A stretch of DNA of 64,000 nucleotides from a bacterium (GTDB taxonomy: Bacteria; ARS69). The stretch is taken from assembly GCA_046330135.1 (NCBI GenBank), contig JAXLTI010000004.1, positions 1,174,394 to 1,238,393 on the forward strand, in the 5' to 3' direction. Shown here piece by piece: positions 6,222 through 63,615 of the stretch. The notes under the pieces were generated by a model. The model was not told the origin of the DNA and did not search any database. It saw only the letters and a list, made by a program, of their open reading frames with translations. A program made the position numbers and the translations under genes. Each line of letters begins with the position of its first letter. Within the stretch, counting starts at the first letter, position 1.

Positions 6222-7739
6222 GTGGAGTCGGAAACCCGGAGCGGCAACGTGCGACGCGGATCAACTCTCTTCGGCTTCGGCCTACTCGGCTTCGTCGTCG
6301 TGGCCGCCGGCTCGCTATCGGTCTCCCTTGCCCAGACCCCTTGTACTCCCAAGGTGGTCGTACGCTTGCCCGCGTTCGTCGACTACGGCTGTCCCGTGTC
6401 AGCACCCGTGAGGGTCTCGTCCATATGCGACCTGGGAGGCTTTCAGTTCGACGTGGTGTTCGACGAAACGCTTCTCGAGTTCGACCGGGTCGAGCTCGGC
6501 CCCTTCCTGGGAAGTACCGGGCGCAGCGTGATGCAGCTCGGGCCTGTCGTTCAGGTCGGGAGAGTGCGTTACGGGGCGCTGTCGTTCGGAACCCAGGCCG
6601 GATCGACCGGATCCGGCGACCTTGCGACCTTGACCTTCATCAATCGGAATCCAGGGCCCACGCGTCGCGCCTCGACGGTCACGCTCGAAGCGCTTGAGCT
6701 GGTGGATACGGAAGGCCGAGCGATGGAGACCGAGAGCGCACCTGGAAGCGTGAGCCTTCTTCATCACATCTTCGGGGACTACGACGAGGACTGCGAGGTC
6801 ACGGTCGGCGATGCCATGCAGCTGGCCACCCGGTGGGGGGCACGTAGCGGAGACGAGCGCTATGATCCCACCTGTGACGTGGACCTTGCCTCTCCGGGAG
6901 AGTACTGCGCGTCCGTCCCGGACGGCGACATCGACATCGTGGACGTCCAACTGGTCGCGTCGCGGTGGTCAGCCACCTGCGCGACCAGCACATCGGTGAC
7001 GTCGAGTGCCGTGATCACCGCGCCGGTGTCGTTCTCCTTCGATCCTCCCTCCGTGGCGGGGAGCGAGGGAGGCCTCACCTCGGTGGCGATCGTCGCATCA
7101 GGTGCGGAGGATCTCGGTGCGTTCGAAGGTCGCTTGGTGTTCGACCCCGAGGTCGTGGAGATCACAGCGGTCCGTGGAGGTGAATTTCTGACTCAAGGAG
7201 GCAACGGCACGGTCTCCTTGAGCGATGCGCCGACGCAAGGTGCGGAGGCCGTCGGGGCCTTTAGCTACGGGCCGTCTGGAGGCGCCTCGGGTGCCGGCAC
7301 GGTTGCGTACGTGGACCTACGACTCAGAACCTGTGGCCGCTCGGAGTTGGTACTCGAGGATGTCCGCGTGGTGTCGAAAGACGGAAGAGAAGAGACGCTC
7401 GGCGCAACGTCGACCGGCGAGGTGGCGTGCGCCGCATCCGGAGTCGGACCGGGGGCAGCGGCTGCGCGCCACGGAATCTGGGCCACGCCAAGCCCATTCC
7501 GCGAGGGGACGACGATCTTCCTTGAGGTTCCGGCCGCGTCGAAGCTCCGCGTGGACGTCTTCGATGTATCAGGACGTCGCGTGCGTGGCCTCGTCGACTC
7601 GGAATTGCAGGCGGGAGTGCACCGTTGGCAGTGGAATGGCTGCGACGATGCGGGACGGCCTGTTCCGACCGGGATCTACTTCGTCAGAGGTCTCGACCCG
7701 ACCGCGTGCCGTACGCTTAAGGTCATCCGCACTCGGTGA
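6222..7739 (+). CDS. secreted cohesin/dockerin-like protein with C-terminal FlgD-Ig/T9SS-type domain (paralogue of the 4230..6140 C-terminal two-thirds)
   Basis: Signal peptide. CDLGGFQFDVVFDETLLEF cohesin-like block, DYDEDCEVTVGDAMQLATRW dockerin-like block, and C-terminus SPFREGTTIFLEV...VFDVSGRRVRGL...WNGCDDAGRPVPTGIYFVRG. Collinear with the upstream gene. Confidence 0.6.
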   Translation: MESETRSGNVRRGSTLFGFGLLGFVVVAAGSLSVSLAQTPCTPKVVVRLPAFVDYGCPVSAPVRVSSICDLGGFQFDVVFDETLLEFDRVELGPFLGSTGRSVMQLGPVVQVGRVRYGALSFGTQAGSTGSGDLATLTFINRNPGPTRRASTVTLEALELVDTEGRAMETESAPGSVSLLHHIFGDYDEDCEVTVGDAMQLATRWGARSGDERYDPTCDVDLASPGEYCASVPDGDIDIVDVQLVASRWSATCATSTSVTSSAVITAPVSFSFDPPSVAGSEGGLTSVAIVASGAEDLGAFEGRLVFDPEVVEITAVRGGEFLTQGGNGTVSLSDAPTQGAEAVGAFSYGPSGGASGAGTVAYVDLRLRTCGRSELVLEDVRVVSKDGREETLGATSTGEVACAASGVGPGAAAARHGIWATPSPFREGTTIFLEVPAASKLRVDVFDVSGRRVRGLVDSELQAGVHRWQWNGCDDAGRPVPTGIYFVRGLDPTACRTLKVIRTR

Positions 7740-8710: not shown

Positions 8711-10441
8711 TCATTGCGCCACCGGCGCGCGCTGGTAGATGCGCACGAGGTCGATGCCCTTCAGCCCGAACGACTTCACGCCGTGATACGGACCGGCCTG
8801 CCCGTTCGTGAACAGCTTCCAGAGGAGACGCGAGGTCCAGTAGGCCTGATTCGTCTCGAGCACCCAGTAGTCCGCGCCCTGCGCGAAGGTGAAGTCGGCG
8901 CGCAGGAGACCGTAGCGCTGATACTCGCGGAGCGACGTGTACGACCCCGCGTTCCAGTCGATCGTGGCGCGCTCGGGGAGGTTCGCGTTGATCCAGCTCA
9001 CGACCTCCGGCGTCACCGCTTCCGCGCCCCAACAGGTGGACTCGAGGCCCGCCCCCTGAGGCGGCGGGAGTCCGGCGCGCGGTCCGTTCACGAACGCGTT
9101 GTAGTAGGCGAGCGGATAGGGCTGCACGGACGCCACGGCCCACACTCCGCATCCGAGAAGCGCCGCTCCCACGAGAAGCGGCGCCGCCTGCGCAACTCGA
9201 GGCGCGGGCGACCTGTCCGCGCGCAGCCATTTCTTCGCGCCGTCCATCAGCGTGGCGAAGCCGACCCCGGCGAGCACGCCCACGACGAGCGGAGCGAGGA
9301 GGAAGTGGCGAACGCCGTCGTAGACCGGAGAGCGCAGCGCCACGAACGGCAGCATCGACGCGGCGGCACCGAGGAGCAGCAGCGTCACGAGGCTGTGCCG
9401 GCGCCGCACGCGCACGCACGCGGCGGCCGCGAGCACCAGGAACGGAATGGGTGTGGTGAGCAAGAGCATCGCGGGCAGGTACGTGCGCGGCACGGTGTAG
9501 CCGTCGTACTGCGTCCCGAAGAAGTACACGGGGAAAGTGCGGTGGGCCAAGTGGAACTCGACGAGGTGGCGCAATCGGCCCACCGGGTCCGTCCAGAGAT
9601 ACGGCCACACGGCGTAGAAGAGAATCGCGGCGCCGATCGCGAGCGTCGCAGCGATGACCAAGGTCCGGCGCGGCGCCACGAGGAGGACCCAAGGCACGAT
9701 CGCCCCCACGAGGAAGAGCGCGTTCAGCTTCGTGGCCACCCCGAGGCCGAAGAGGGCGGCGAGCGGAAGGAGCCGTCGAGCGCCGAGGCGATCCGCGCGG
9801 GCCAGTCGCGCCACCCAGGCCAGCGTGGCCAGCTCGAGCGCCGCCACCGGCAAGTCGAGGCAGGCGAAGTGCGCGTGTCCGAAGACGTGCGGCATCGCGG
9901 GGAGCGCGGCGGCGGCGAAGAGCCCGGCGCTCGGGCCCGCCTCGGCCGCGGCCAGCCGGAACGCCGCGATCTGCGCGAGGAGCAGGAACACCAAGGCGCC
10001 CGCCCGAACGCCGGCGATCGGCCCGAGAGGTCCGGGGACCAGCGGGGCGCGGAGCGCGCCCGGGGAATCGACGCGCTCGTCGTAGTCCGCGCCGTACCGC
10101 TCCTGGGAAACGCCCGGCCCGAGCAGCGCATCGGAGGCCGCGTACACCCACTTCGCGAACGGCGGGTGCTCGACGTTGTACTCCCACACGGCGGGATCCG
10201 GAGCGCGGAGCGACGTCTCGCCCGCCGCCACCCGATGCACCCAGTCCTCGATCAGCCACGCGGCGCGGAAGTACCAGACCTCGTCCACGAACGTCCCGTA
10301 GTCGTCGAGCGTGGCGATCATGACGACTTGTGTCAGGAGGAGAATCGAGATGAGGACGATCATCGTCGCGCCGGGTCGCCGGCCAGCGAGGCGCGGAGCA
10401 TCGACGTGCGGAAGCGACGCGGCGTCGCCAGTCAGCTTCAT
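8711..10441 (-). CDS. glycosyltransferase family 39 (ArnT/PMT-like) polytopic membrane protein
   Basis: The table ORF extends to 10861 with an Arg/Ala-rich, non-hydrophobic N-terminus. Start moved to MKLTGD (10441), just before the first TM helix. Multiple TM segments, a DDYGTFVDEVWYF-type loop and PPFAKW are typical of GT-C/GT39. The stop of the upstream SGNH gene (10438) overlaps this start. Confidence 0.6.
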   Translation of the reverse strand: MKLTGDAASLPHVDAPRLAGRRPGATMIVLISILLLTQVVMIATLDDYGTFVDEVWYFRAAWLIEDWVHRVAAGETSLRAPDPAVWEYNVEHPPFAKWVYAASDALLGPGVSQERYGADYDERVDSPGALRAPLVPGPLGPIAGVRAGALVFLLLAQIAAFRLAAAEAGPSAGLFAAAALPAMPHVFGHAHFACLDLPVAALELATLAWVARLARADRLGARRLLPLAALFGLGVATKLNALFLVGAIVPWVLLVAPRRTLVIAATLAIGAAILFYAVWPYLWTDPVGRLRHLVEFHLAHRTFPVYFFGTQYDGYTVPRTYLPAMLLLTTPIPFLVLAAAACVRVRRRHSLVTLLLLGAAASMLPFVALRSPVYDGVRHFLLAPLVVGVLAGVGFATLMDGAKKWLRADRSPAPRVAQAAPLLVGAALLGCGVWAVASVQPYPLAYYNAFVNGPRAGLPPPQGAGLESTCWGAEAVTPEVVSWINANLPERATIDWNAGSYTSLREYQRYGLLRADFTFAQGADYWVLETNQAYWTSRLLWKLFTNGQAGPYHGVKSFGLKGIDLVRIYQRAPVAQ

Positions 10442-11526
10442 TTCCGAAGCGCGCCGAGCAGATCCGGACTGTCCATGACCCAGCGTGCGAGCGCCCGCCC
10501 GGCCACGTGATTGCCGCGCTCGGTGAAGTGCCCGTCCCGCGGCAGGTACAGCCCGGCGATGCGCTGCTCCGCGGTGACCACCGGCAGCAGATCGATCGAT
10601 GGGATGCCCGCCGCCGCCACGCGACGCTGCAGCTCGGTCTGCAGCGGGATGTCCTCCGGCCGCGTCCTGGCGAGCGCGTAGACGTCCGCGGGCAGCCACA
10701 CGACCGCGAAGCGCGCGCCCAGGCCGTCGGCGATCTGCTTCATCCGCAGGATCTGCTTCTCGGAGAGATCGAGGCCGCGCTGGAACTCGGCGGGCGTGAA
10801 CTGCTTGAGCGGGCGGGCGCTGGGCATGCCGTGGAGGTAGCGGACGCGGAAGGTCTCCCACGCGGAGGAGAAGAGCCGGTAGAGATGGCTCTCGCGGGCG
10901 AGCCAGCTTTCGCGGAAGTACTGCTGCGTGAACGAGTCGAAGAGGTAGCCGTCCCGTACGCCGTAGGGGGCCGGCGCTCCCAGGAGATCGGCCAGCAAGT
11001 TATCCGTGTAGTCGTTCGCGAAGAAGCCGAGCAGCACCACGTCGGGCGCCACCTTCGCACCGATCTCTTCGAGAAGCCCCGCCTCGGAGCCGGTGCCGTA
11101 CGCGTTCACGCCGCAGTTCACGGTCTGCACCTTCGGGCCGCCCAGCCGCTCCAGCTCCTGCCCGAGAACGTGGATCCATTCCTTGCCCTGCGGGCAGCCC
11201 CAGCCCCACGTGAACGAGTCGCCGAAGGCGGCGATGCGCGGTCGCGTCTTCGGCCCGAGCTCCGCTCCGCGCAGCCCCAGCGAGTTCAGGGAGAACTCCG
11301 TGACCACGCCGTCGCGCTCGATCTTCCCTGCGAAATTCGGCGCCGGCCGGAAGCCGGCCTTCGCGTCGGGCACGTACATGCCCTTCAGCACGTACGTGCG
11401 AATCTGCTCCTGCGAGGGCAGGGTCTGCGGCGCGAAGATCCGCACGGCGATCTCGGCGAGCGGCAGCATGACGAGCAGCGTGATCGGAACGAGCAGGATC
11501 TCCGCGAGCCGAATCCGGCGGGTCAT
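10438..11526 (-). CDS. SGNH/GDSL-family hydrolase, membrane-anchored
   Basis: Start at MTRRIRLAEILLVPITLL (TM anchor). GDSFTWGWG block I (GDS), LGFFANDYTDN block (DxxN-like). Tightly packed: its start is 2 bp from the upstream gene's stop. Confidence 0.65.
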   Translation of the reverse strand: MTRRIRLAEILLVPITLLVMLPLAEIAVRIFAPQTLPSQEQIRTYVLKGMYVPDAKAGFRPAPNFAGKIERDGVVTEFSLNSLGLRGAELGPKTRPRIAAFGDSFTWGWGCPQGKEWIHVLGQELERLGGPKVQTVNCGVNAYGTGSEAGLLEEIGAKVAPDVVLLGFFANDYTDNLLADLLGAPAPYGVRDGYLFDSFTQQYFRESWLARESHLYRLFSSAWETFRVRYLHGMPSARPLKQFTPAEFQRGLDLSEKQILRMKQIADGLGARFAVVWLPADVYALARTRPEDIPLQTELQRRVAAAGIPSIDLLPVVTAEQRIAGLYLPRDGHFTERGNHVAGRALARWVMDSPDLLGALRK

Positions 11527-34389: not shown

Positions 34390-36525
34390 ATGCGCACGAT
34401 GAACTGGTGCTCGATTCTGCTGCCGCTCGTGACCGCAACGGCCTTCAGCGCTGGCTCAGCGCAGGCGGCTGAGCTCGATCCTCCCGCGATGGAGCGCACC
34501 TGGCCGGTGGTCCCGGTGGATCCGTCGGGGCACGTGAACCTCGCGGCGATCGTCGTGACCACGGAAGACGACGTCGTGGCGTTCGACGACGTCAGCCACA
34601 AGCTCCTCAAACTGACCTCGTCCGGAACGCTTCTCGACACGTGGGCCGTTCCGGAGTCACTCGAGGTCCAGAAGCTCGACACGGGCCCGCAGGGCTCGGT
34701 GTACGTGGGTTGCTCGGGCCGCATCCTCGTGTTCGACCACGACGGCGGGATTCTCTCCGACCGCGCGATGCGCTGGAGGGACTTCGCGGTGGGCGGTGCA
34801 GGCGAGATCTACCGCATCGATCCGGATCTGCGGGACGTCATCGTGGTCTCGACGCGCGACGGCACCTTCCTGCGCGAGTGGGATCTTCCCCTCAACCCAT
34901 GGGGTCTGCCCTACCGCCCTCTCGCGATCGCCGCAGACCCCGACGGGGTGATCGCGTTCTGCGACACGATGGATGGGCCGCACTGCGTCGTGTCGTGGAC
35001 TTTCTCCGGCGTGCTGCGCGACTCCAGGACCGTGCCTCTCGATGAGTGGCACTCGTTGACGTCCGGTCGCGCCGGGACTCTGTACTTCTTCGAGAACGCC
35101 ACACCGTCCTTGGAGGCCATGGATGGTTCCCTGATCCATCTGGCGTGGTGGTCGGACCTGTTCGAATTACCGTGGGACTACTACGTCAGTCCCTCGGGGG
35201 ACTCCGGCGGGCGCACCTACCTCGCGGAGACCCTCGACGATCTCACCGGAGCCCGAGTCCTGGTCTTCGCGCCCATCGGCCCCGGGGCAATCCTCGAGGC
35301 GGACCACCCGGGCGCCCCCTACTGGGTCGACGGCGTCCAATACCTGGGGAATCACCGCTTCGATTGGACGCCGGGGACCGTCCACACCGTGACGGCCGCG
35401 CCTGAGTTCGAGACCTCGCCGGGGACGCGCGAATCCTTCCTTTCGTGGTCCGACGGCGGCGATGCGCAACACGACGTCACCGTGCCCTCGCACGCGTTCG
35501 GTCTGCGTGGCCTCTTCCGCACCGAACGTCTCGTCTCCACCGTCGTGGACTCCGGCGGCACGGCGACGGCGAGCGCCTGGGTCGCCGACAGCACCCAGGT
35601 GACGCTCTCCGCGCACGAAGCGCCCGGCTACCGATTCGTGAAGTGGGGAAACCCGGACTCCGTCGGTTGGAAGCCGGGCGACGTGCTCACGCCGGAGTGG
35701 ACGCACACGGTGACTCATCCGGAATCATGGGAGGCGTGCTTCGTCCGGCAGGGACTCGTGCTTTCGATCAGCGCGAGCGCCACGGATCCGAGCGCGAACA
35801 CCGCCGCGCCCGCGATGGGCCCGCGCCAGCTCTACTTGTGGGCGAAGTGCTTGGACCACGGAATCTCCGCGCTCGAAGCCGACGTGACGGGCTCGCTGCA
35901 GGCGGGTGGGTTCATCCCGGCGAACGGCGTGCTGAACCTTGGCGAAGGACCGAATCTCCTCTGCGCGATCCCCGGCTGCCCGATCGGGGCGGAAGTGAAC
36001 CACCTGCTGGGATCGTGGTGGGTGGCCGATGTCGGCGGCGACTTCTGTCTCACGCGGTCGGCGGCGAACGGCGTGCTGGTCGTGGTGGAATGCCCGTCTC
36101 AGTTCCCGCAAACGTTCACGCCGACGATCGTGGGGTTCTCGTCGATCGGGGATCCCTGCGTGACCGGTCCGCTCTGCGGTGCGGATCCCGACTCGCTGCC
36201 GTTGGATCCGAACGACGTCCCGGTGGTCGCGTTGTCGTCGGTGCCGAGCGTTCTCATGCTCTCCTCGCGCGGGAACCCCTTCCGAGGTTCGATCGAGCTG
36301 GCGCTGGATCTTCCGACGAACGCGCGTGCGGAGCTTCGCATCTTCGACGTGGCCGGGCGACTCGTACGCACCCTCCTTGCGGACAACGTGACCGCGGGCC
36401 GGCGCGCGATCTCGTGGGACGGCCGCGACGCGAGCGGCGCGGTGACGCCTTCGGGAATCTACTTCGCGCGCCTCGACGCGGCGGGCGAGCGCCGGACGCT
36501 GAAGCTGGTGAGGGTGTCTCGGTGA
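34390..36525 (+). CDS. secreted protein with an NHL/beta-propeller-like N-terminal region, an internal copy of the DPHxNTGG domain and a C-terminal FlgD-Ig/T9SS-type domain
   Basis: ATG at 34390 with GGAAGGAG RBS and a signal peptide. The internal segment DPSANTAAPAMGPRQLYLWAKC...GPNLLCAIPGCPIGAEVN...GVLVVVEC aligns with the domain in 4230 and 57239. C-terminus NPFRGSIELALDL...IFDVAGRLVRTL...WDGRDASGAVTPSGIYFARL. Confidence 0.6.
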   Translation: MRTMNWCSILLPLVTATAFSAGSAQAAELDPPAMERTWPVVPVDPSGHVNLAAIVVTTEDDVVAFDDVSHKLLKLTSSGTLLDTWAVPESLEVQKLDTGPQGSVYVGCSGRILVFDHDGGILSDRAMRWRDFAVGGAGEIYRIDPDLRDVIVVSTRDGTFLREWDLPLNPWGLPYRPLAIAADPDGVIAFCDTMDGPHCVVSWTFSGVLRDSRTVPLDEWHSLTSGRAGTLYFFENATPSLEAMDGSLIHLAWWSDLFELPWDYYVSPSGDSGGRTYLAETLDDLTGARVLVFAPIGPGAILEADHPGAPYWVDGVQYLGNHRFDWTPGTVHTVTAAPEFETSPGTRESFLSWSDGGDAQHDVTVPSHAFGLRGLFRTERLVSTVVDSGGTATASAWVADSTQVTLSAHEAPGYRFVKWGNPDSVGWKPGDVLTPEWTHTVTHPESWEACFVRQGLVLSISASATDPSANTAAPAMGPRQLYLWAKCLDHGISALEADVTGSLQAGGFIPANGVLNLGEGPNLLCAIPGCPIGAEVNHLLGSWWVADVGGDFCLTRSAANGVLVVVECPSQFPQTFTPTIVGFSSIGDPCVTGPLCGADPDSLPLDPNDVPVVALSSVPSVLMLSSRGNPFRGSIELALDLPTNARAELRIFDVAGRLVRTLLADNVTAGRRAISWDGRDASGAVTPSGIYFARLDAAGERRTLKLVRVSR

Positions 36526-49358: not shown

Positions 49359-49742
49359 CTACGTGCGGCGGGAGTGGCTCTGCACGCGCCGCATGACGAG
49401 GGAGCGGTGCTTCGCGTCGGCGAACTCCTCGCCGCGCCCCTTGCCGCGCAGCTCGTCCACGAGCTTGTCCGCGGCCGCCACGTCCACGTCCGCCACCTCG
49501 GACGCCGCCTCGGTCAGCACGGTCACCTTGTCGGCGGCGACCTGGACGAAGCCGCCCTCCACGAAGAGCTCGCGCGTCTTGCCGCCGCTCGTGACCCGCA
49601 GCACGCCGACTCCCAGCTTCGCGAGGAGCCGCGCATGTCCGGGGAGGATGCCGATCTCGCCGTCGTGCGCGGGCACGACCACCCGCTCGGCGTCCTCGTC
49701 GAGGATCGCCCGCTCCGGCGTGACGACGGTGCATTTCAGCAT
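49359..49742 (-). CDS. atpC: F1Fo ATP synthase epsilon subunit
   Basis: MLKCTVVTPERAILDEDAERVVVPAHDGEIGILPGHARLLAKL is a canonical epsilon N-terminal beta-sandwich. Confidence 0.85.
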   Translation of the reverse strand: MLKCTVVTPERAILDEDAERVVVPAHDGEIGILPGHARLLAKLGVGVLRVTSGGKTRELFVEGGFVQVAADKVTVLTEAASEVADVDVAAADKLVDELRGKGRGEEFADAKHRSLVMRRVQSHSRRT

Positions 49743-49824
49743 GGTCAGCGAGCCCTCCCGCCCCGAACGGCCGTCGCCCGGCGCGCGGCCCGTTCGCCGG
49801 GCGGCACCGGATGCGAAGGCGACA

Positions 49825-52222
<2,398 letters not shown>

Positions 52223-52240
52223 GTCGAGGTCTCCTGGGTC

Positions 52241-54314
<2,074 letters not shown>

Positions 54315-54318
<4 letters not shown>

Positions 54319-54974
54319 GATCCCGTCCGCGCCCCCGTGCCCTTCGACTCCGTCTGCATCTGCTCGACGAGCTCCTTCACCAGCCGCTCCTGGTCGGCGC
54401 CGTCGAGACGTCGGCCGAGGATGCGCCCCGCGAGGTCCGTCGAAAGGTCCGCCGCCAGGTTCCAGATCTCCTGAATCGCGGCGTCCTTCTGGAGCTCGAT
54501 CTCCCGCCGCGCGCGGTCCTTGAACTCCGTCGCCTCCTTCTGAGCGGTGGCGCGGATCTCCTCCTGCACGCGGCGACCGTCCGAGCGAGCCTCGTCCAGG
54601 ATGGCGCGCGCCTCGTCCTTCGCGGACTTCAGCATCTCCTGGTACTTCCCGAGCAGCGCCTCCGCCTCGTTCTTGATGCGGCGCGCGTCCTCGATGGCGC
54701 CCTCGATGCTCCGCTGGCGGTCGGCGAGCGACTTGGCGAGCGGCTTCCACGCGGTCATCCGCAGGACCAGGAGGACCACGAGGAACGTGACGATGGTCCA
54801 GATGAGCAGCCCCGGCTCCACGCTGAAGAGGCTGGGCGCCGCGTGCGCAGCCTCCGCGCCGGCAGCCGTCTCGGCCGCGTGCGACTCGACGCCGCCCGGA
54901 GGCGCCTGCGCGAGCGCTGCGGCCGGAAGCGCCGCGAGGCAGAGCGCCCCGAGCGGGAAGTCGATTCGTTTCAC
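54315..54974 (-). CDS. atpF: F1Fo ATP synthase subunit b
   Basis: Single TM LIWTIVTFLVVLLVL followed by a long charged coiled coil. Confidence 0.8.
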
Positions 54975-55008
54975 GACGTGCCCTCCCTCGCCGATCGCTC
55001 GACCGCGA

Positions 55009-56049
<1,041 letters not shown>

Positions 56050-56053
<4 letters not shown>

Positions 56054-56481
56054 CGCGGCGCCTCGAGGGGCTGCCGGGCGAGGATCCACGCCTCGAGAAC
56101 GATGAGTGCGAAGTAGAACCCGACGAGCCACAACACGAACGCGGCGGGCCGCAGCCCCGCGCCGGCCACGAGCGTGGCGACGACGCCGAAGAGCAGGAGC
56201 ATCCGCGTCACGAAGCCGCCGACCACGAGCTTCGTCGCGAATCGGTCGGGTCCCCGGAAGGCGAGCTGCGCCAGCCAGAAGCCGCCCACGACGGTGAAGA
56301 GGCTCGCCGCGGCGCCCACCGCCATCATCACGAGGGCTTCAGTCCCTCCGAGCAGAATCGTGGGGAGAGCTGCGGCCGCCGCGAGGATCAGCGTGGCCAG
56401 GGCCAGCAGCGCGGGGATCCGACGCCGAGGAATGGCCGTCGTCCGGAGGACGGGTCTCTCGGTACAGGAGATAGAAGCCAA
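56050..56481 (-). CDS. atpI: ATP synthase protein I (AtpI-like, 4 TM)
   Basis: Position immediately upstream of atpB. Four hydrophobic helices. Overlaps the atpZ tail by about 140 bp in another frame, so the true start may be internal. Confidence 0.5.
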
Positions 56482-56647
56482 CGCCAGCTCCCAAGAACGT
56501 CCCGACCAGGGTCAGGATCCCGGTCGACAAATGCAGGCGGCGATCCAGCCAGTGTCCAGCCCAGATCGCCCCCAGCACGATGACGGCAAACTGGATTCCG
56601 AGGTGCGAGTACCGGAGGATCTCGGAAGGTCCCGAACGACCCGCCAC
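56339..56647 (-). CDS. atpZ: AtpZ/ATPase_gene1-family small membrane protein
   Basis: LGIQFAVIVLGAIWAGHWLDRRLHLSTGILTLVGTFLGAGVGFYLLYRETR matches the ATPase_gene1 pattern. The low-complexity C-terminal tail overlaps atpI. Confidence 0.5.
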   Translation of the reverse strand: MAGRSGPSEILRYSHLGIQFAVIVLGAIWAGHWLDRRLHLSTGILTLVGTFLGAGVGFYLLYRETRPPDDGHSSASDPRAAGPGHADPRGGRSSPHDSARRD

Positions 56648-57238
56648 AGGACCTCCGCCAGCCGTCCACGTGGACCCGGAAGGGTCCGAGCGGCAGCTTC
56701 CGACGCGCTCAGGGCCCCCGGAGGCCGAAGGTGTTCAGCCGGTTTCCCCACGCCCGCCCGCGAAGGAGGCACGGTACGGGCCTTTGCGGAAGCTCGCAAG
56801 TGTTTTCGTTCACAAGCAGGGTCAGTCAACCCTCTCGTGGGCAGCGTCCCTCCCGTCGGTGCCGGGCCTCGTAGCCGGAATTGGCTCTCCGCTAGATTCG
56901 TGAGCGAAAGTCCGGCACCCTGGATGCCGATCTAGGGGGGACCGCCGTCGATCCGGTCCGGGTGGTGCCCCGGGGCGCTTTTCCCCGGCTTCACCCCTTG
57001 CGTTCGGACCCCGGGGTTGTGCTAGAATGGCCACCGGCCCGGGAGGCCAGGGTGCCTTCGTAGGAAATGACCTCTGGGGCCGCGCGGAATCTCGGTGCGC
57101 GGCGGTGCTGGGGCGGAAAGGGCGAGCTCCTTCGAATGAAGGGCTTGAACTCATGCCCTGGGATTGCTAGAGTAGCGAGTGCGAACAGGGTCCACTCAAC
57201 CCGGTGTCGCGCTCACTGAATCGATTCGGAGGAACACC

Positions 57239-57790
57239 ATGAAGCGTATCCTGACGATTGCTCTCGCTCTGTTGGTGATCGCGATGCCGGCGTTTGCCCA
57301 GCAGCAGTACGGCTGGACGGTCAGCGCCAGCCAGACCGACCCGCACATGAACACCGGCGGCCTCGCTGCTGGCGGGCTCGGGCACCTGTACCTCTGGTAC
57401 TTCTGCAACGCCCCGATGGGAATGTCGGCTGCGGACATGGGCCTGGCGGCCACGGGCGTCGTCTTCGCGGGCTTCTCGCCGTTGAACGGCTTCCTGAACG
57501 CGGGCTCCGGCCAGAACCTGCTGCTCGCGGTCGGTGGCTGCCCGAACGGCCCGGTCGCGGCGGGTGACATCACCGTCTTCTACTTCGGTGGCGCTGGCAG
57601 CATGTGCATCGTCAACTCGAACAACAACATTCGTGTGACGGTGGACTGCACCTCCCCCACGCCGAGCGCGTGGGACATCCACGCTGTCGGTTGGGATGCC
57701 CTCGCGGCGCCCGCCTGCAGCGAAGTGCTCTGCCCGCCCACGGCCGTCGAGCCTCAGAACTGGGGCGCGATCAAGAGCCTGTACCGCTAA
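57239..57790 (+). CDS. small secreted protein: standalone QQYGW/DPHxNTGG domain with a W-x-x-IK-x-LYR C-terminal tail
   Basis: ATG 57239 with GGAGG RBS. Signal peptide MKRILTIALALLVIAMPAFA. About 60% identical over about 150 aa to the N-terminal domain of the 4230..6140 protein. Ends EPQNWGAIKSLYR. Confidence 0.65.
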   Translation: MKRILTIALALLVIAMPAFAQQQYGWTVSASQTDPHMNTGGLAAGGLGHLYLWYFCNAPMGMSAADMGLAATGVVFAGFSPLNGFLNAGSGQNLLLAVGGCPNGPVAAGDITVFYFGGAGSMCIVNSNNNIRVTVDCTSPTPSAWDIHAVGWDALAAPACSEVLCPPTAVEPQNWGAIKSLYR

Positions 57791-57820
57791 CGCTGGTACT
57801 GGGTTCGGCCCAGAAAAAGT

Positions 57821-57855
57821 GCGGGGCCTCCTCTCGGAGGCCCCGCTTCTTTTTG
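57821..57855. terminator. bidirectional Rho-independent terminator
   Basis: AAAAAGT-GCGGGGCCTCC-TCTC-GGAGGCCCCGC-TTCTTTTT is a perfect 11-bp GC stem with a 4-nt loop, flanked by an A-tract and a T-tract. It lies between the convergent genes at 57790 (+) and 57921 (-). Confidence 0.7.
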
Positions 57856-57920
57856 CCCAGCGCGAGCGCGATCTCTCGCGAGACGCCGCAACGACCGAAC
57901 GGCTGAGGGCGTGCCGCGGA

Positions 57921-58553
57921 TCAGCCGAAGCTTCCGGGCATCACGACCTGCAGTGCGTGCACGAGAAGACGCTCGGCCCTCCGCAGCTGACGCACGTGGT
58001 AGGGCTCGTCGGAGGAATTCCACAGGAACGCGAACGCGGCGGGCACCGTGTCCATGCTACGCGCCCGCTGATTCCGGAGGGACAGCACTTCCACCAGCTC
58101 CTCGGCGGACCACACGTCAGGTCGCAGCCGATCCACGTCCATCCAGATCTCACGGAATCCGAAGAGCAGCTCTTGGATGTCGTGCATCGCGGCGCCGTGC
58201 TTCAGGAGGTACCGAACGACTCGGTCCATCTCCGGCAGGTCGGCGAACTCCTCGACTTGCGGCAGCTTCGGTGAGCGCCCGTGCGAGCGCATCGCCTTCG
58301 GCAGGAACTCCACGCTCGCCTCGACGCCCTGCTGGCCGAGCCAGCGGAAAGCGCCGCGAATCGGGCCCCCGTCATATCCGATCATCCACGAGGCGGCGTA
58401 TTCGGGCGGACCCGAGCCGTGGGGTGGGGGACCCCAGGGAGGAGTGACCTTCTCGAAGCGCGAGAGACGGTAAAGGTCCTTCGGAAGCGGCTGCTCGAGG
58501 AACGCCGCCACGAGCTCCGGAGCGGTCCGGTAGATCGAACGAGTGCCGGGCAC
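57921..58553 (-). CDS. hypothetical protein
   Basis: C-terminal 210 aa of the 371-aa table ORF have normal composition (start set at GTG 58553). The upstream part is Pro/Arg/Gly-rich and overlaps the thiC leader. No family recognised. Confidence 0.4.
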   Translation of the reverse strand: MPGTRSIYRTAPELVAAFLEQPLPKDLYRLSRFEKVTPPWGPPPHGSGPPEYAASWMIGYDGGPIRGAFRWLGQQGVEASVEFLPKAMRSHGRSPKLPQVEEFADLPEMDRVVRYLLKHGAAMHDIQELLFGFREIWMDVDRLRPDVWSAEELVEVLSLRNQRARSMDTVPAAFAFLWNSSDEPYHVRQLRRAERLLVHALQVVMPGSFG

Positions 58554-58834
58554 GTCCGCACCCTCCTTCCGACGCGGGTGGGCGCCCGGGCGTGACCGCC
58601 GCTCCGGGAACCCACCGGCAACGGGTGGAGGGGTGACCCGACCCGCGCCGGGTCCACGGCCAACGCCCCACTCGACGCCTGCCGCCCCGACCAAGCAACT
58701 GACACACTGGCAAGGAGTTGCGGGACGGTCCACGACGGTGGGGGCCGACCGCGAGAGTCGCCCTTCCCATCGCTCCGAACATCCCACGGAATTGCGCGCG
58801 AAGCAAGGGTCGTGCGAAGAGGCATAGGGGCGCA

Positions 58835-58975
58835 GCAGCGGTCCGCTGGACTGAGACGAGCCTCCGGCCAGGGTCAGTCGGGGTCGGGACGAGTCCTCCG
58901 GCGGCGCCGACGGGTCGTCGGCTGGACCCGGCCGGTGCGATCCCCTAGATTCCGGACAACGGAGATCTTGGAGGT
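58835..58975 (+). ncRNA. candidate TPP (THI-box) riboswitch in the thiC leader
   Basis: A 440-bp untranslated leader precedes thiC. It contains GGACUGAGACGAG (the CUGAGA box) and a downstream GGCUGGACCCGGCCGGUGCGAUCCCCUAGA segment that could form P4/P5 and close P1 against an upstream GGGGCGC. The pyrimidine-sensing ACCUGAUCYGG-UAAU box is not clearly recognisable, so this is low confidence. Confidence 0.25.
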
Positions 58976-58992
58976 CCCTGAAGGGAGGATCC

Positions 58993-60462
58993 ATGGCCAC
59001 GATCGAGCAGGGGATTCCCGCGGAAGCTTCCGCCATCGGGCGCGACGTGGGCGCGGGCTACGGCGATCTTGCGGGAATGACCCCCGTCGCGCCGCTCCGC
59101 TCCGAGTGGGTCGCGCGACGCCGCAATGACTCGGTGCGGACGCAGATTCGCTACGCGCGAGAGGGCCTCGTGACCGAGGAGATGTGGGTCGTGGCGCAGC
59201 GCGAGGCGCTCTCCCCGACCTTCGTTCGTGACGAGGTGGCGCGCGGGCGCATGATCATCCCCGCGAACGTCCACCACGAGAACCTCGTGCCGATGGCGAT
59301 CGGCATCCACGCGCGCTGCAAGATCAACGCGAACATCGGAAACAGCGCCGTCACCTCGGACGTCGAGGGCGAGCTCGAGAAGCTCCGGCGCTGCATCAAG
59401 TACAAGGCCGACACCGTGATGGACCTCTCCACGGGCGGCGGGATCGACGAGATCCGCGAGGCGGTCATCCGCCACAGCCCGATCCCCGTCGGGACCGTGC
59501 CGGTCTATGAAGCCGTGCAGGCCGTGCGCAAGGCGCAGGATCTGACCGCGGACGGGCTCGTGGCCACGATTCGCCACCAGGCGGAGCAGGGCGTGGACTA
59601 CATGACGGTCCACGCGGGCATCCTCCGCAAGCACCTCCCGCTCGTCGATCGGCGCATCACCGGCATCGTGAGCCGCGGCGGCTCGATCATGGCGATGTGG
59701 ATGCTCGCCCACCGGCGGGAGAACCCGCTCTACGAGCGCTACGACGAGATCCTCGAGATCTGCCGCGCGCACGACGTGTCGCTCTCGCTCGGCGACAGCT
59801 TGCGACCCGGCTGCATCCACGACGCGTCGGACGATGCGCAATTCGCGGAGCTGGACGTCCTGGGCGAGCTGACGGCTCGCGCGTGGGAGAAGGACGTGCA
59901 GGTGATGGTGGAGGGTCCGGGACACGTGCCCCTGGACCAGATTCCGATGAACATCCAGCGCCAGATCGAGGTGTGTCACGAGGCGCCGTTCTACGTGCTG
60001 GGTCCGCTCGTGACCGACGTGGCGCCCGGCTACGACCACATCACGTCGGCGATCGGCGCTGCGGTGGCGGGCCAGCACGGCGCGGCGATGCTCTGCTACG
60101 TCACGCCGAAGGAACATCTCGGGCTGCCGAAGGCGGCGGACGTGCACCAGGGCATCATCGCCTATCGGATCGCGGCGCACGCGGCGGACGTGGCGCGCGG
60201 GCGGCCGGGGGCGCGGGACTGGGACGATGCCATCTCCCGCGCGCGCTACACCTTCGACTGGCACGAGCAATTCGCGCAGTCCATGGACCCCGAGGTCGCC
60301 CAGTCCATGCACGACGAGGACCTGCCCCACGAAGCGTTCAAGACGGCGGAGTTCTGCTCGATGTGCGGGCCGAAGTTCTGCTCCATGAAGATCTCTCAGG
60401 CCGTCGACGAGTACAACGCGAAGCTCCGCCGCGGAGAGGTCGTCGGGACGGCGGCGCTGTAG
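58993..60462 (+). CDS. thiC: phosphomethylpyrimidine synthase
   Basis: 489 aa, conserved throughout ([14 protein letters not shown]-like VPVYEAV) with the C-terminal CxxCxxxxC radical-SAM cluster [11 protein letters not shown]. Confidence 0.95.
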
Positions 60463-60606: not shown

Positions 60607-61212
60607 ATGGCCCGCGTGTCCGCGTCCCGGGCCGTCGCCGCGCTGGCGGCTCTCGGCCTGGCCGGTTGCATCACCTCTCCCGATCAGGCGCCCAAGCCGC
60701 ACGATCTGCCCGGCTACACCGACCCCTCGGCGTTCGTGCAGGCCTACGCCGCTTCGCTGCAGGAAAGAAACCTGGCCAACTACCGGAAGCTCCTCGCGGA
60801 TGAGTTCGAGTACTTCCCGAGGGCCGCGGATCTCCCCATTCCCTGGCTCGACGGCGACTCCTGGGGCTACGCCGACGAGCTCGGCATGATCGGACACATG
60901 ATGGACTCCGCGTTCGTCCCGAAGGACCCGGACTGCGGCGCCGTTCGCGCGATGTACGCCGAGCTCACGGTGTCCTCTCGGCGCGACGTCGGCGACGGAA
61001 CGATCGAGGTCGGGACCGTCGGTTTGATCCGCGTCGTCTGGGGCGCGGACGGCGGGGGGGTCGCGAACGCGCGCTTCGTCTTCGATCTCGCGAGGGGCGA
61101 GGACGGGTATCTCCGCCTGCGCGCCATGCACGAGCTCCCGCTGTTCCGGGAGGGATCCCTCGAGGTCACTCCCCGGACCTGGGCCGGTCTCAAGGCGGGC
61201 TACCGCGAGTAG
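60607..61212 (+). CDS. NTF2/SnoaL-like lipoprotein, member 1 of a tandem paralogue array; C-terminal W-x-x-LK-x-GYRE
   Basis: Lipobox LGLAGC. Family blocks Y.DP.A.V.AYA..L..R.L..Y..LL.D.F.YFP....LP.PWL.GDSWG...ELGMIGHM. Ends TPRTWAGLKAGYRE. Confidence 0.6.
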   Translation: MARVSASRAVAALAALGLAGCITSPDQAPKPHDLPGYTDPSAFVQAYAASLQERNLANYRKLLADEFEYFPRAADLPIPWLDGDSWGYADELGMIGHMMDSAFVPKDPDCGAVRAMYAELTVSSRRDVGDGTIEVGTVGLIRVVWGADGGGVANARFVFDLARGEDGYLRLRAMHELPLFREGSLEVTPRTWAGLKAGYRE

Positions 61213-61232
61213 TTGGAAGGGGAAGCGTCCCG

Positions 61233-61820
61233 ATGTCGCGCCCGTGCGTTCGAATCGCGAGCATCGCCGGCCTGCTGGGGCTCTTCGCGGCCGGATGCCT
61301 CACGGATTCCGACAAGCCGTCGGGCGCGGTGGCGGGCACCACGGATCCGGCGACGCTCGTGGCGAGGCACGCCGCGGCTCTCTCGCACCGCGACTACGAT
61401 GCCTATGCCGCGCTTCTCAGCGACGACTTCATGTTCTACCCGGGGTCCCTCGCCATCCTGGACACGAGCGACCTCCAGGACTTCCCCTGGCTGACCGGGG
61501 AGGGCGCGTTCGCCTGGGACCGCATCGGCGAGCTCGGCATGATCGGGCAGATGTTCGCGACGCCGAACACGTCGATCGGAGCCGCGTTCGAGGTGCTGAG
61601 CATTCGAGGCACGTTGGACGCGGGCTTCGACGTCGACACACACGCGACCTTCAGCGTGGCCTCGCGCACTTTCAGTGCCGAGGCGGACACGCGCCTCGTC
61701 TTGCGCCTCTCGAAGGCGCGCGACGGCTACCTGCGCATCCACTCGATCCGCGAGATCCCGCCGGAGCTCTTCTACGGGGGAGTGACCTGGGCTGCGATCA
61801 AGATGAGGTATGAGCCATGA
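61233..61820 (+). CDS. NTF2/SnoaL-like lipoprotein, member 2
   Basis: Lipobox FAAGC. Blocks TDPATLVARHAAALSHRDYDAYAALLSDDFMFYP and FPWLTGEGAFAWDRIGELGMIGQMF. Ends VTWAAIKMRYEP. Confidence 0.6.
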   Translation: MSRPCVRIASIAGLLGLFAAGCLTDSDKPSGAVAGTTDPATLVARHAAALSHRDYDAYAALLSDDFMFYPGSLAILDTSDLQDFPWLTGEGAFAWDRIGELGMIGQMFATPNTSIGAAFEVLSIRGTLDAGFDVDTHATFSVASRTFSAEADTRLVLRLSKARDGYLRIHSIREIPPELFYGGVTWAAIKMRYEP

Positions 61821-62947
61821 CCACCGCTCGCAACCTGCGCATCCTCCTGGGGCTGGGCGCCGCGCTCGCGTCGGCGGCGTGCGGGCACGACGACGGACCC
61901 ACGGCGCCGCCGCACTTCACGGAGCCCGCCGCGCTGGTCGGGGGCTACGCGACGGCCTTCACGGCGCGAAACGCCGGCGCATGCGTGGATCTGCTCGAGG
62001 CCGCGAGCGGTACGAGCGGCGGCTTCCGTTTCTTCCCGAAGAGCGAGGATCTTCCGGCCTTGGATTGGCTCGCCGGCGACAGCTGGGGCTACGAGCGCGA
62101 GGGAGGGATCCTCTCCAACATGCTCGACCGGACCTACGTGAGCGAGGCGGCGGCCGCCGCCGGGTTCACCGGCGTGGGCACGCTGACGCTCGAGACGGAC
62201 TCGACCACCCCGCTCGCGGGGCACGAGTACGACGTCCTCGCCTCGGGGACTTTCGCGATGAAGCGCGCCGCCCTTGCCGACGTTCTCTATCCCGTCGGGC
62301 TGCGCTTCGTGCTGGCGACGTCGACGGACGGCACCCTCGTGATCCGCGAGATGCACGAGCTGTCCATGGGGATGGACCGCTCGCCGGGCGCGCTGAGCTG
62401 GGGGACGGTGCAGAGCTGGTACCGCGAGCCGCCGCCGCGGTACACGGATCCGACCGCGCTGATCGCGGCGCACGCCGCCGCGCTCACGGATCGCGACCTC
62501 GAAGACTACGCGAGCCTCCTCGACGGCAGCTTCCAGTACTTCCCGCAGCCCCAAGACCTCAGCGATCTTCCGTGGATGACGGGCTCGTCGTGGGGGCGCT
62601 CGGACGAGCTTGAGATGATCCGCCACATGTTCGACCCGAGCTACGAGCCCATGGGCTCCCACGCGGGGAGCATCGACTCGATCCACGCGACCTTCCAGGT
62701 TCTCCACGTCCAGCCGGACTCCATCCTCGGTGGGACCCAGGTCTCGACGAGCGCCGTTCTTCAGGTGATGTACGACGCGTCGAGCGGCGCGGCGGCCAAT
62801 GTCCGATTCGACTTCCACCTCGTGTCGCACGACGGGCATCTCCTCATCTCGGAGATCCGCGAGCTGCCGCTCCACGCGCCGGCCCGTGACGAGTTGCCGG
62901 TCGAGCCGCAGACCTGGGCGAACATCAAGGCGCTGTACCGAGAGTGA
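61817..62947 (+). CDS. NTF2/SnoaL-like lipoprotein, member 3 (internally duplicated: two family domains in one protein)
   Basis: Lipobox LASAAC. ATGA overlap with member 2. First repeat ends ALSWGTVQSWYRE and runs directly into the second repeat PPPRYTDPTALIAAHAAALTDRDL...; the second ends PQTWANIKALYRE. Confidence 0.6.
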   Translation: MTTARNLRILLGLGAALASAACGHDDGPTAPPHFTEPAALVGGYATAFTARNAGACVDLLEAASGTSGGFRFFPKSEDLPALDWLAGDSWGYEREGGILSNMLDRTYVSEAAAAAGFTGVGTLTLETDSTTPLAGHEYDVLASGTFAMKRAALADVLYPVGLRFVLATSTDGTLVIREMHELSMGMDRSPGALSWGTVQSWYREPPPRYTDPTALIAAHAAALTDRDLEDYASLLDGSFQYFPQPQDLSDLPWMTGSSWGRSDELEMIRHMFDPSYEPMGSHAGSIDSIHATFQVLHVQPDSILGGTQVSTSAVLQVMYDASSGAAANVRFDFHLVSHDGHLLISEIRELPLHAPARDELPVEPQTWANIKALYRE

Positions 62948-62991
62948 CGGGCGTCGCCGAGCCGGAGTGCAGTGAACAGGAGGCAACCCAT

Positions 62992-63615
62992 ATGACCACC
63001 CCTCGTACCCTGAGTCTCTTCCTGGGGCTGACTGCCGCGCTCGCGTTGGCGGCATGTCACGACGACACCTCGACCGGTCCTCCGACCCACTCCGGTCCGC
63101 CGAGGTACAACAATCCGAACGCGTTGATCGACGCGCACGCGTCGGCGCTCACCAACCGCGATCTCGCGGCCTACACGAACCTCCTCGACGAGGGCTTCCA
63201 GTACTTCCCGCAATCGGAAGACCTCGCGGACTTGACTTGGCTGACGGGCGACTCCTGGGGACGAGCGGACGAGCTGGGGATGATCGGCCACATGTTCGAC
63301 CCGGACTTCCAACCTGCCTCGGGCATGCATGCGGGGAGCGTCGACTCGATCGACGCGACCCTCACCGTCGTGACGGTCCAGCCGGCGCCCACCGGCGTCG
63401 GGTACGTGGTCACGACGCACGCCGTGATCCGAGTGATGTACGACGCCTCGAACGGCGCCGCGACCGACGTCCGGCTCGAGTTCCACCTCGTGCCGCACGA
63501 CGGGTACTTCCTCATCTCGGAGATCCACGAGATGCCGCTTCACGCGCCGGCGCTGTCCGGGATGCGGGCGGTCGAGCCGTCCTCCTGGGGGCAAGTCAAG
63601 TCGCTGTACCGCTAG
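62992..63615 (+). CDS. NTF2/SnoaL-like lipoprotein, member 4
   Basis: ATG 62992 with AGGAGG RBS. Lipobox LALAAC. NPNALIDAHASALTNRDLAAYTNLLDEGFQYFPQSEDLADLTWLTGDSWGRADELGMIGHMFD. Ends PSSWGQVKSLYR. Confidence 0.6.
   Translation: MTTPRTLSLFLGLTAALALAACHDDTSTGPPTHSGPPRYNNPNALIDAHASALTNRDLAAYTNLLDEGFQYFPQSEDLADLTWLTGDSWGRADELGMIGHMFDPDFQPASGMHAGSVDSIDATLTVVTVQPAPTGVGYVVTTHAVIRVMYDASNGAATDVRLEFHLVPHDGYFLISEIHEMPLHAPALSGMRAVEPSSWGQVKSLYR

Follow-up and report, generated by a model that had tools for sequence, protein, structure and literature searches.

An uncatalogued domain family with a predicted cohesin-like fold and a conserved C-terminal tag on exported bacterial proteins

Background

What is the small exported protein encoded at 57239-57790 of a 64,000-nucleotide stretch of bacterial DNA, and what is its single domain doing in two much larger proteins of the same stretch? 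The stretch (GTDB lineage ARS69; assembly GCA_046330135.1, contig JAXLTI010000004.1, positions 1,174,394 to 1,238,393 of the forward strand) is here called the window, and all coordinates below refer to it unless another locus is named. An initial annotation, made by a model without database searches, had described the domain as one that it could assign to no family, and had suggested that it is a binding or catalytic module of the cell surface. It is found below that the sequence family of the domain is new, that its fold class is a known one, and that the small protein ends in a separate C-terminal tag, which is the most unusual element here, more so than the domain.

Three copies of the domain in the window

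The domain is about 145 aa long and occurs three times in the window, in proteins that will be called A, B and C, all encoded on the plus strand. Protein A (57239-57790; 183 aa) is the stand-alone form, in which the domain, of predicted cohesin fold, spans residues 21-165 (57299-57733; limits from a hidden Markov model (HMM), with AlphaFold2 and Foldseek as further evidence) and is followed by the tag. Protein B (4230-6140; 636 aa, the start being a GTG that precedes the signal peptide) has it as its N-terminal module at residues 22-166 (4293-4727), and protein C (34390-36525; 711 aa) has it at residues 449-599 (35734-36186); these two copies rest on the HMM limits and on tblastn.

With tblastn, A matches B at 76.8% identity over 164 aa (E 3e-83, 258 bits) and C at 36% identity over 150 aa (E 5e-15, 65 bits), and the copy in C matches B with E 1e-17. 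The similarity is far above chance, because the best score reached by shuffled versions of A (n = 200) is only 21.6 bits. The presence of one domain in three proteins of the window, as initially annotated, is therefore confirmed by tblastn, by the HMM and by the shuffle control. The copy in C had been placed at about 35760-36095; it is indeed present there, but its HMM limits are wider.

The genes of A, B and C each have a Shine-Dalgarno-like site and a signal-peptide-like N-terminus. The signal peptide of A, MKRILTIALALLVIAMPAFA (57239-57298, plus strand), has a cleavage-type site between AFA and Q, and this N-terminal pattern is kept across the family alignment. The domain had been said to follow a signal peptide either directly or behind a propeller. 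The signal peptides agree with this description, but the 'propeller' upstream of the domain in C finds no support in Pfam at E <= 10.

Comparison with sequence libraries

The domain of A, B and C has zero matches in Pfam or NCBIfam at E <= 1, in scans that do detect Cohesin, FlgD_ig and the type A sorting domain of the type IX secretion system (T9SS) elsewhere in B and C. When 65 family members were compared with Pfam, no relevant family was matched, and none of them matched Cohesin. The gathering score of the cohesin family PF00963 is reached neither by A nor by any of the 65 members, in a scan that recovers the true cohesins in B and in the protein encoded at 6222-7739. Among the curated NCBIfam choice-of-anchor HMMs, none matches the domain at E <= 1 in A, B or C; among the Pfam families of carbohydrate-binding modules (CBMs), none matches A at E <= 1 and none matches any of the 65 members; and no enzyme family of Pfam or NCBIfam matches A. 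Sequence searches of the PDB, with single-sequence as well as profile queries, returned nothing.

The initial annotation had named a confident family match covering the conserved core as the finding that would make this a known domain. No such match was obtained from Pfam or NCBIfam, and the fact that it could assign the domain to no family is borne out by Pfam, NCBIfam and PDB sequence searches alike. Neither Pfam nor NCBIfam contains the family, and at the level of sequence families the domain is new.

Size and distribution of the family

A word-indexed search yielded 64 relatives of A, nearly all of which are stand-alone proteins of 141-227 aa without any Pfam domain. A profile search against 1.84 billion cluster representatives (clusters at 50% identity) gave 814 clusters at E <= 1e-3, 623 at E <= 1e-10 and 194 at E <= 1e-30, and the members are again mostly stand-alone proteins, 180-230 aa in length. 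The strict pattern LLLAVGGCP, scanned in one genome per GTDB species, occurs at 20 loci, all in metagenome-assembled genomes (MAGs) labelled Gemmatimonadota, Candidatus Eisenbacteria or merely 'bacterium'. Three of the 20 loci are held by one complete 4.7-Mb chromosome (OZ244210.1). One multidomain family member is annotated as from Candidatus Eiseniibacteriota. The domain genes often form tandem arrays of 2-4 genes per locus, and on one 1.3-Mb MAG contig seven relatives have consecutive locus tags (U0167_00490 to U0167_00520).

An HMM scan for wider distribution and domain partners, which had been proposed along with the initial annotation, thus reveals a large family with fusions to surface modules. 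It is firmly supported that this family is real, widespread and uncatalogued, and that its members are exported Cys-stabilised beta-sandwich modules. In literature searches, no paper was found on Eisenbacteria together with type IX secretion, and none mentioning Eisenbacteria was found in connection with cohesin or dockerin.

Conserved cysteines and motifs

Conservation was followed in 206 aligned instances, with residues numbered as in full-length A. C101 (in GGCP) and C137 (in VDC) are 100% conserved, C165 is present in 91% and C56 in 77%. C123 and C160 co-vary, both being present in 153 instances and both absent in 36, with 17 discordant. All six Cys are present in each of the three window copies, which points to three disulfides in an exported protein. 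The initial annotation was thus right about conserved Cys but not about their number: in place of four Cys and two disulfides, there are six Cys and probably three disulfides.

Conservation in the family is strongest in strands b1 (YGWTISxS), b5 with its loop (NLLLAVGGCPxGP) and b8 (VTVDC), in the NGFLNAG loop and in the C-terminal tag. Among the polar residues, S29, S31, N87, C101, D136 and C137 are near-invariant.

There is also a circularly permuted subfamily (proteins P0159, P0172, P0176, P0186 and P0188, and the genes at 9067-10937 of locus L015 and 2503-3201 of locus L020), in which the order is signal peptide, strands b7-b9 with the Cys linker, strands b1-b6, tag. P0159 aligns with a tandem duplicate of mature A in one single high-scoring segment pair (E 7e-28), and the L015 region consists of three adjacent genes with the same permuted order.

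Predicted fold

The AlphaFold2 model of A, based on a 65-sequence alignment, is an all-beta sandwich with a mean predicted local distance difference test (pLDDT) value of 93.0 and a predicted template-modelling (pTM) score of 0.85. It has ten beta-strands over mature residues 1 to ~130, followed by a linker and a C-terminal helix at mature residues 152-162 (pLDDT ~62). In a Foldseek search of the PDB, the top 8 matches are all cohesins (probability 1.00, template-modelling (TM) score 0.47-0.62), and cohesins also make up most of the top 50. The best match is 4ums (E 5.7e-5, TM 0.59/0.62), and further cohesin matches include 5lxv, 5nrm, 6kgf, 2ccl, the archaeal 2xdh and 2jh2 of C. perfringens; the sequence identity of A to these cohesins is 5-10%. 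No CBM or enzyme fold is found among the top 50 PDB matches. The CLIPPER domain (PDB 9ifr, match 9), an isopeptide-bond stalk domain, was considered and set aside, its TM score being only 0.37-0.47.

Cohesins are characterised by a nine-stranded beta-sandwich (jelly-roll), and the predicted structure of A has this arrangement. Structure prediction and a Foldseek search, suggested when the domain was first noticed, have given a confident beta-sandwich whose fold is recognisable as cohesin-like though the sequence family is not. That the domain is cohesin-like in its predicted fold is firmly supported at the level of the model; in sequence, no membership of the cohesin family is detectable.

The C-terminal tag

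The last 17 residues of A constitute a separate C-terminal tag, which was not singled out in the initial annotation. It reads TAVEPQNWGAIKSLYR-COOH (57740-57787, plus strand), is predicted to be a helix, and follows the consensus VExxSWGx[IV]KxLYR. From 218 unique tails, the longer consensus C-x-P-V-S-V-E-x-x-S-W-G-x-[IV]-K-x-L-Y-R was derived, in which W and K are conserved at 100%, R at 99%, Y at 96% and G at 92%; the tag Arg is the very last residue in 206 of 229 proteins. Within the window, the tag is found at the end of A and of four lipoprotein genes (60607-63615). At the genome loci it also closes beta-helix, lamin-tail-like and glycosidase-like proteins, these labels being readings of the sequence and not Pfam assignments.

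A degenerate DNA pattern for the tag (VE-x3-WG-x-[IV]K-x-LYR-stop) was found on at least 120 metagenome contigs; the pattern carries 42 bits, and about 1 chance match would be expected by a rough estimate in which uniform base composition and ~1e12 bases are assumed. The following counts hold among the matches listed. The contigs have 42-72% GC, mostly 55-70%, and contain at least 149 ORFs (open reading frames) ending in the tag, of which the 138 that are at least 100 aa long form at least 75 clusters, including 55 singletons. The cohesin-fold domain is found in the two largest clusters. A signal-peptide-like N-terminus was recognised by a crude test in 109 of 126 tag-bearing ORFs, compared with 151 of 621 control ORFs. 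Some of the tag-ending ORFs have Pfam matches, to Beta_helix, to Cleaved_Adhesin, to pullulanase X25 with Big_5, or to PKD, and others have none. The tag marks exported proteins.

When 40-aa C-terminal fragments with the tag were compared with Pfam and NCBIfam, no match was obtained at E <= 10. A literature search for tag strings returned only unrelated papers, none of which uses the motif in this sense. A generic membrane-binding helix was considered as the identity of the tag; this is less likely, because the tag is too strongly conserved across very diverse cargo. Membrane-binding helices such as those of MinD or PBP5 do not usually show conservation of this strength.

Multidomain architectures and alternative C-termini

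In B, the signal peptide (4230-4292) and the new domain (4293-4727) are followed by a cohesin (~4737-5162), a dockerin-like segment (~5163-5426), a second cohesin (~5427-5834) and a T9SS-type C-terminal domain (~5883-6131), all on the plus strand and located by HMM and Pfam; the dockerin-like segment is below Pfam thresholds and was recognised by reading the sequence only. Protein C is composed of a signal peptide, an unassigned N-terminal region of ~420 aa with a weak InlB B-repeat match, the new domain, and a T9SS-type C-terminal domain (~36274-36510, plus strand). The C-terminal domain of B scores 32.2 bits against TIGR04183 (cut-off 23) and 38.5 against FlgD_ig, and that of C scores 23.4 and 38.9, respectively. 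Only B and C carry such a domain, and A has none. The signal peptides, together with the T9SS-type C-terminal domains of B and C, fit the extracytoplasmic location that was originally proposed.

Immediately downstream of B, the gene at 6222-7739 (plus strand) encodes a paralogue of B without the new domain, with the layout signal peptide, cohesin, dockerin-like segment, cohesin, FlgD_ig-type C-terminal domain. Since this layout equals B minus the new domain, B looks like the same architecture plus the domain at its N-terminal tip.

In the family at large, the fusion partners of the domain are InlB B-repeats, beta-helix, DUF11, Cohesin and Dockerin, and the multidomain members all end in FlgD_ig / Por_Secre_tail. 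The domain is found at the N-terminal tip in B, P0152 and P0174, and immediately ahead of the C-terminal domain in C, P0075, P0100 and P0203. That it is used both on its own and as part of large surface proteins of T9SS type is firmly supported. The tag is present in 176 of the 200 proteins that have the domain as their last module, and absent in 10 of the 12 proteins with sequence beyond the domain. Among the matches listed from the tag search, 48 ORFs end in a T9SS-type domain. They are distributed over 33 loci, 31 of which also hold tag-bearing ORFs, and the number of ORFs with both C-termini is zero.

Possible roles of the domain and the tag

We consider it fairly probable that the domain is a module for recognition or scaffolding at the cell envelope or surface, without catalytic activity, and that the C-terminal element is an interchangeable address or anchor. 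Protein A is a small Sec-exported protein consisting of a probably disulfide-stabilised beta-sandwich of ~145 aa, a linker and the 17-aa tag; the domain would bind a protein, or possibly a glycan. In B the domain forms the N-terminal tip, ahead of the cohesin / dockerin-like / cohesin part, and in C it lies directly before the C-terminal domain. Both of these proteins have a T9SS-type sorting domain in place of the tag, and it would be the tag or the T9SS domain that decides the destination of the module. Of the 'binding or catalytic' role suggested initially, the binding part fits the predicted cohesin-like fold, but nothing points to catalysis.

Several points weigh against this interpretation. 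The very high conservation along whole strands and motifs (NLLLAVGGCPxGP, GMSAAD, NGFLNAG) exceeds what a simple binding face needs, and is left unexplained by it. The predicted cohesin fold does not establish homology to cohesins. When the family alignment was compared with the four cohesins of the window by hhalign, the probability was 0.1% (E 0.65; with only 4 sequences in the cohesin alignment the sensitivity is limited), and there is therefore no detectable membership of the cohesin sequence family. The Sec signal alone would put A in the periplasm of a diderm cell, so that for the stand-alone form a position on the surface is assumed. The binding function of the domain and its partner or ligand, like the surface localisation of A and the sorting role of the tag, are what we infer from these data.

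A different arrangement, which we regard as rather unlikely, is that the domain is itself the receptor of the tag, the tag being a one-helix 'mini-dockerin'. The T9SS-anchored B and C would then capture tag-bearing exoproteins, and A-like proteins would be adaptors or would form head-to-tail chains. The cohesin-like fold is in keeping with this, as is the dockerin-like spread of the tag over unrelated exported proteins (beta-helix, PKD, Cleaved_Adhesin, pullulanase X25 and NTF2-like lipoproteins). Moreover, the anchored forms of the domain are without the tag, the domain family provides the largest cargo clusters among the tag-bearing ORFs (among the matches listed), and the tag is as strongly conserved as the core of the domain, which suggests a specific protein partner. 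However, a dockerin is much longer than the tag and has Ca-binding loops, which the tag lacks, and canonical cohesin and dockerin-like modules are already present in B. The permuted subfamily attaches the tag elsewhere on the fold, which an independent address tag would explain no less well. Finally, the tag-bearing contigs listed range from 42 to 72% GC, whereas the domain has been traced only to high-GC MAGs labelled Eiseniibacteriota or Gemmatimonadota. There is a small chance that domain and tag form a new two-part docking or sorting system in Eiseniibacteriota-like diderms, in which dozens of unrelated exoprotein families are tagged and the domain captures the tag or is sorted along with it; if this were true, the system would be a functional analogue of cohesin-dockerin or of the T9SS C-terminal domain, built from other components. 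Should the receptor be something other than the domain, the tag could still, by itself, be a new C-terminal sorting signal with machinery yet to be identified.

It is less probable still that the stand-alone proteins are structural subunits which build a surface fibre, sheath or layer, with the paralogues as major and minor subunits and the tag as the element that polymerises or attaches them. The tandem arrays of 2-7 paralogues would suit such a role, as would the nature of the proteins (small, Cys-stabilised beta-sandwiches) and the monocistronic appearance of A, with a strong Shine-Dalgarno site and its own terminator. In opposition to this, dozens of families that are unrelated to this one, probable enzymes and lipoproteins among them, share the tag, which is therefore not a family-specific polymerisation element. 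The domain also occurs as a single module within large multidomain proteins, and no usher, chaperone or sortase-like assembly genes are linked to A, the neighbours being the ATP synthase operon and thiC.

Carbohydrate binding is improbable to a similar degree. Beta-sandwich modules of this size are commonly CBMs, and the domain could on these grounds bind a polysaccharide (a substrate, an envelope glycan of the cell itself, or lipopolysaccharide) rather than a protein. Glycan-related modules are present in some proteins with the same tag or the same T9SS-type C-terminal domain: a beta-helix stands alongside the domain in P0100, and a tag-bearing ORF without the domain has pullulanase X25 together with a weak match to AMPK1_CBM (glycogen-binding). 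The conserved aromatics Y24, W26 and W53 could form a sugar platform, but they lie in strands b1 and b2 and may be mere core residues. The Foldseek top 50 and the Pfam CBM families, neither of which gave a CBM match (the latter at E <= 1), also argue against this role.

That the domain is an enzyme or pro-domain, with a site for catalysis or self-processing made up of its Ser, Asp, Asn and Cys motifs (GMSAAD, NGFLNAG, GGCP, VDC), is very improbable: near-invariant polar residues such as those listed above (S29, S31, N87, C101, D136 and C137) are unusual for a pure scaffold, but the structural matches include no enzyme fold, Pfam and NCBIfam give no enzyme family match, the domain sits in adhesin-like architectures, and the invariant Cys are better explained by a disulfide in an exported protein.

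Relation to known systems

The preferred interpretation, a recognition or scaffolding module with an exchangeable C-terminus, has parallels in several known systems. Like the cohesins of scaffoldins (PF00963, types I-III; 4ums, 5lxv, 5nrm, 2ccl), the domain is a modular, extracytoplasmic beta-sandwich of ~145 aa as predicted, and B and P0152 combine it with canonical cohesin and dockerin-like modules in one chain. It differs from them in having no detectable sequence relationship, in its six conserved Cys and its own motifs (YGWTIS, LYLW, GMSAAD, NGFLNAG, LLLAVGGCP, VTVDC), in being without a known dockerin partner, and in its host, which is an uncultured diderm group and not a cellulolytic Firmicute. 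Cohesin folds outside cellulosomes, with a general role in protein-protein docking, are known from Archaeoglobus fulgidus (2xdh) and from the GH84/GH33 proteins of Clostridium perfringens (2jh2, 2o4e, 2vo8), and are among the Foldseek matches. These non-cellulosomal cohesins are recognised by Pfam as cohesins and pair with dockerin or FIVAR-dockerin modules, whereas the present family is unrecognised by Pfam and has no identified partner.

The 'choice-of-anchor' domains of NCBIfam resemble the family in that members of a single domain family can have as their C-terminus either a T9SS type A sorting domain or a different, short element; they differ in that no NCBIfam model matches, and in that the second 'anchor' here, the tag, is undescribed, its anchor role being putative. 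The tag is strictly C-terminal on unrelated exported proteins, as are the T9SS C-terminal domains (TIGR04183 / PF18962 / FlgD_ig) and short sorting signals. The T9SS C-terminal domain and the tag are mutually exclusive, but the former is an Ig-like domain of ~80 aa, compared with ~17 aa for the tag. From the LPXTG, PEP-CTERM, GlyGly-CTERM and MYXO-CTERM signals, and from sortase, exosortase and rhombosortase signals, the tag differs in having neither a hydrophobic transmembrane helix nor a basic tail; no processing enzyme is known for it.

The findings support the definition of a new domain family, which comprises more than 800 clusters (50% identity) without annotation and for which the cohesin-like fold offers a first testable functional frame. 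They extend the predicted cohesin-like fold to an uncultured high-GC diderm lineage, in combination with T9SS-type sorting domains, and bear on how such diderm bacteria build their cell surface. The tag, nearly invariant at five positions, shared by at least 75 unrelated exported clusters and absent from Pfam and NCBIfam, is a candidate sorting signal, and its receptor or processing machinery, if found, would add a new case to what is known of protein sorting in bacteria.

Genomic context

A Shine-Dalgarno-like GGAGGA (57229-57234, plus strand) lies 4 nt upstream of the ATG of A, and a terminator-like GC-rich hairpin with an 11-bp stem and a T run on both strands (57821-57846) lies 31 nt past its stop codon. 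With its own Shine-Dalgarno site and a strong hairpin terminator, A looks monocistronic. It is divergent from an ATP synthase operon (ATPase_gene1 56339-56647; a subunit 55271-56338; b subunit 54315-55025; alpha subunit 52241-53776) and convergent with a gene of unknown function on the minus strand (57921 to ~58700), beyond which thiC is found (58993-60462). The gene of unknown function has no Pfam match, is 69% identical to its counterpart in locus L019, and adjoins a domain gene in six loci.

The order ATP synthase operon, domain gene(s), unknown gene, thiC and tagged NTF2-like lipoproteins is kept across several MAGs. With window positions 49359-60462 as the region compared, eight MAG loci (L002, L003, L005-L008, L010 and L019) are syntenic, and hold 1-3 tandem domain genes. 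This arrangement between ATP synthase and thiC is a lineage synteny and not a functional operon, and carries no functional signal. Next to B and C lie unrelated genes for hydrolases and housekeeping functions (sulfatase, gamma-glutamyltranspeptidase, aminotransferase, aconitase).

No Rfam family was found in the whole window at gathering thresholds, nor in 56600-59100 at E <= 1, and no thiamine pyrophosphate (TPP) riboswitch was detected by Rfam upstream of thiC (58700-58992). The intergenic region between the ATP synthase operon and A (56648-57238) is unusually long, ~590 nt, and contains, with no Rfam match, a terminator-like hairpin at 56783-56800.

The four tag-bearing lipoprotein genes (60607-61212, 61233-61820, 61817-62947 and 62992-63615, plus strand) have the lipoboxes LAGC, AAGC, SAAC and LAAC, respectively, and were characterised by the tag pattern, AlphaFold2, Foldseek and alignment. 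None of their products has a significant Pfam match, and there is one sub-threshold match to DUF4440. The AlphaFold2 model of one of them is NTF2-like (pLDDT 78.5), and its top Foldseek matches are 3gwr and CaMKII hub domains (E ~3e-6). In this model the tag helix (pLDDT ~88) follows a disordered linker and looks as if it were docked on the NTF2-like domain.

The lipoprotein encoded at 61817-62947 is a fusion of two NTF2-like modules. At the junction (62396-62428) there is a degenerate internal copy of the tag, SWGTVQSWYRE, in which the K is replaced by Q, and this suggests a tandem gene fusion that reads through a former C-terminus.

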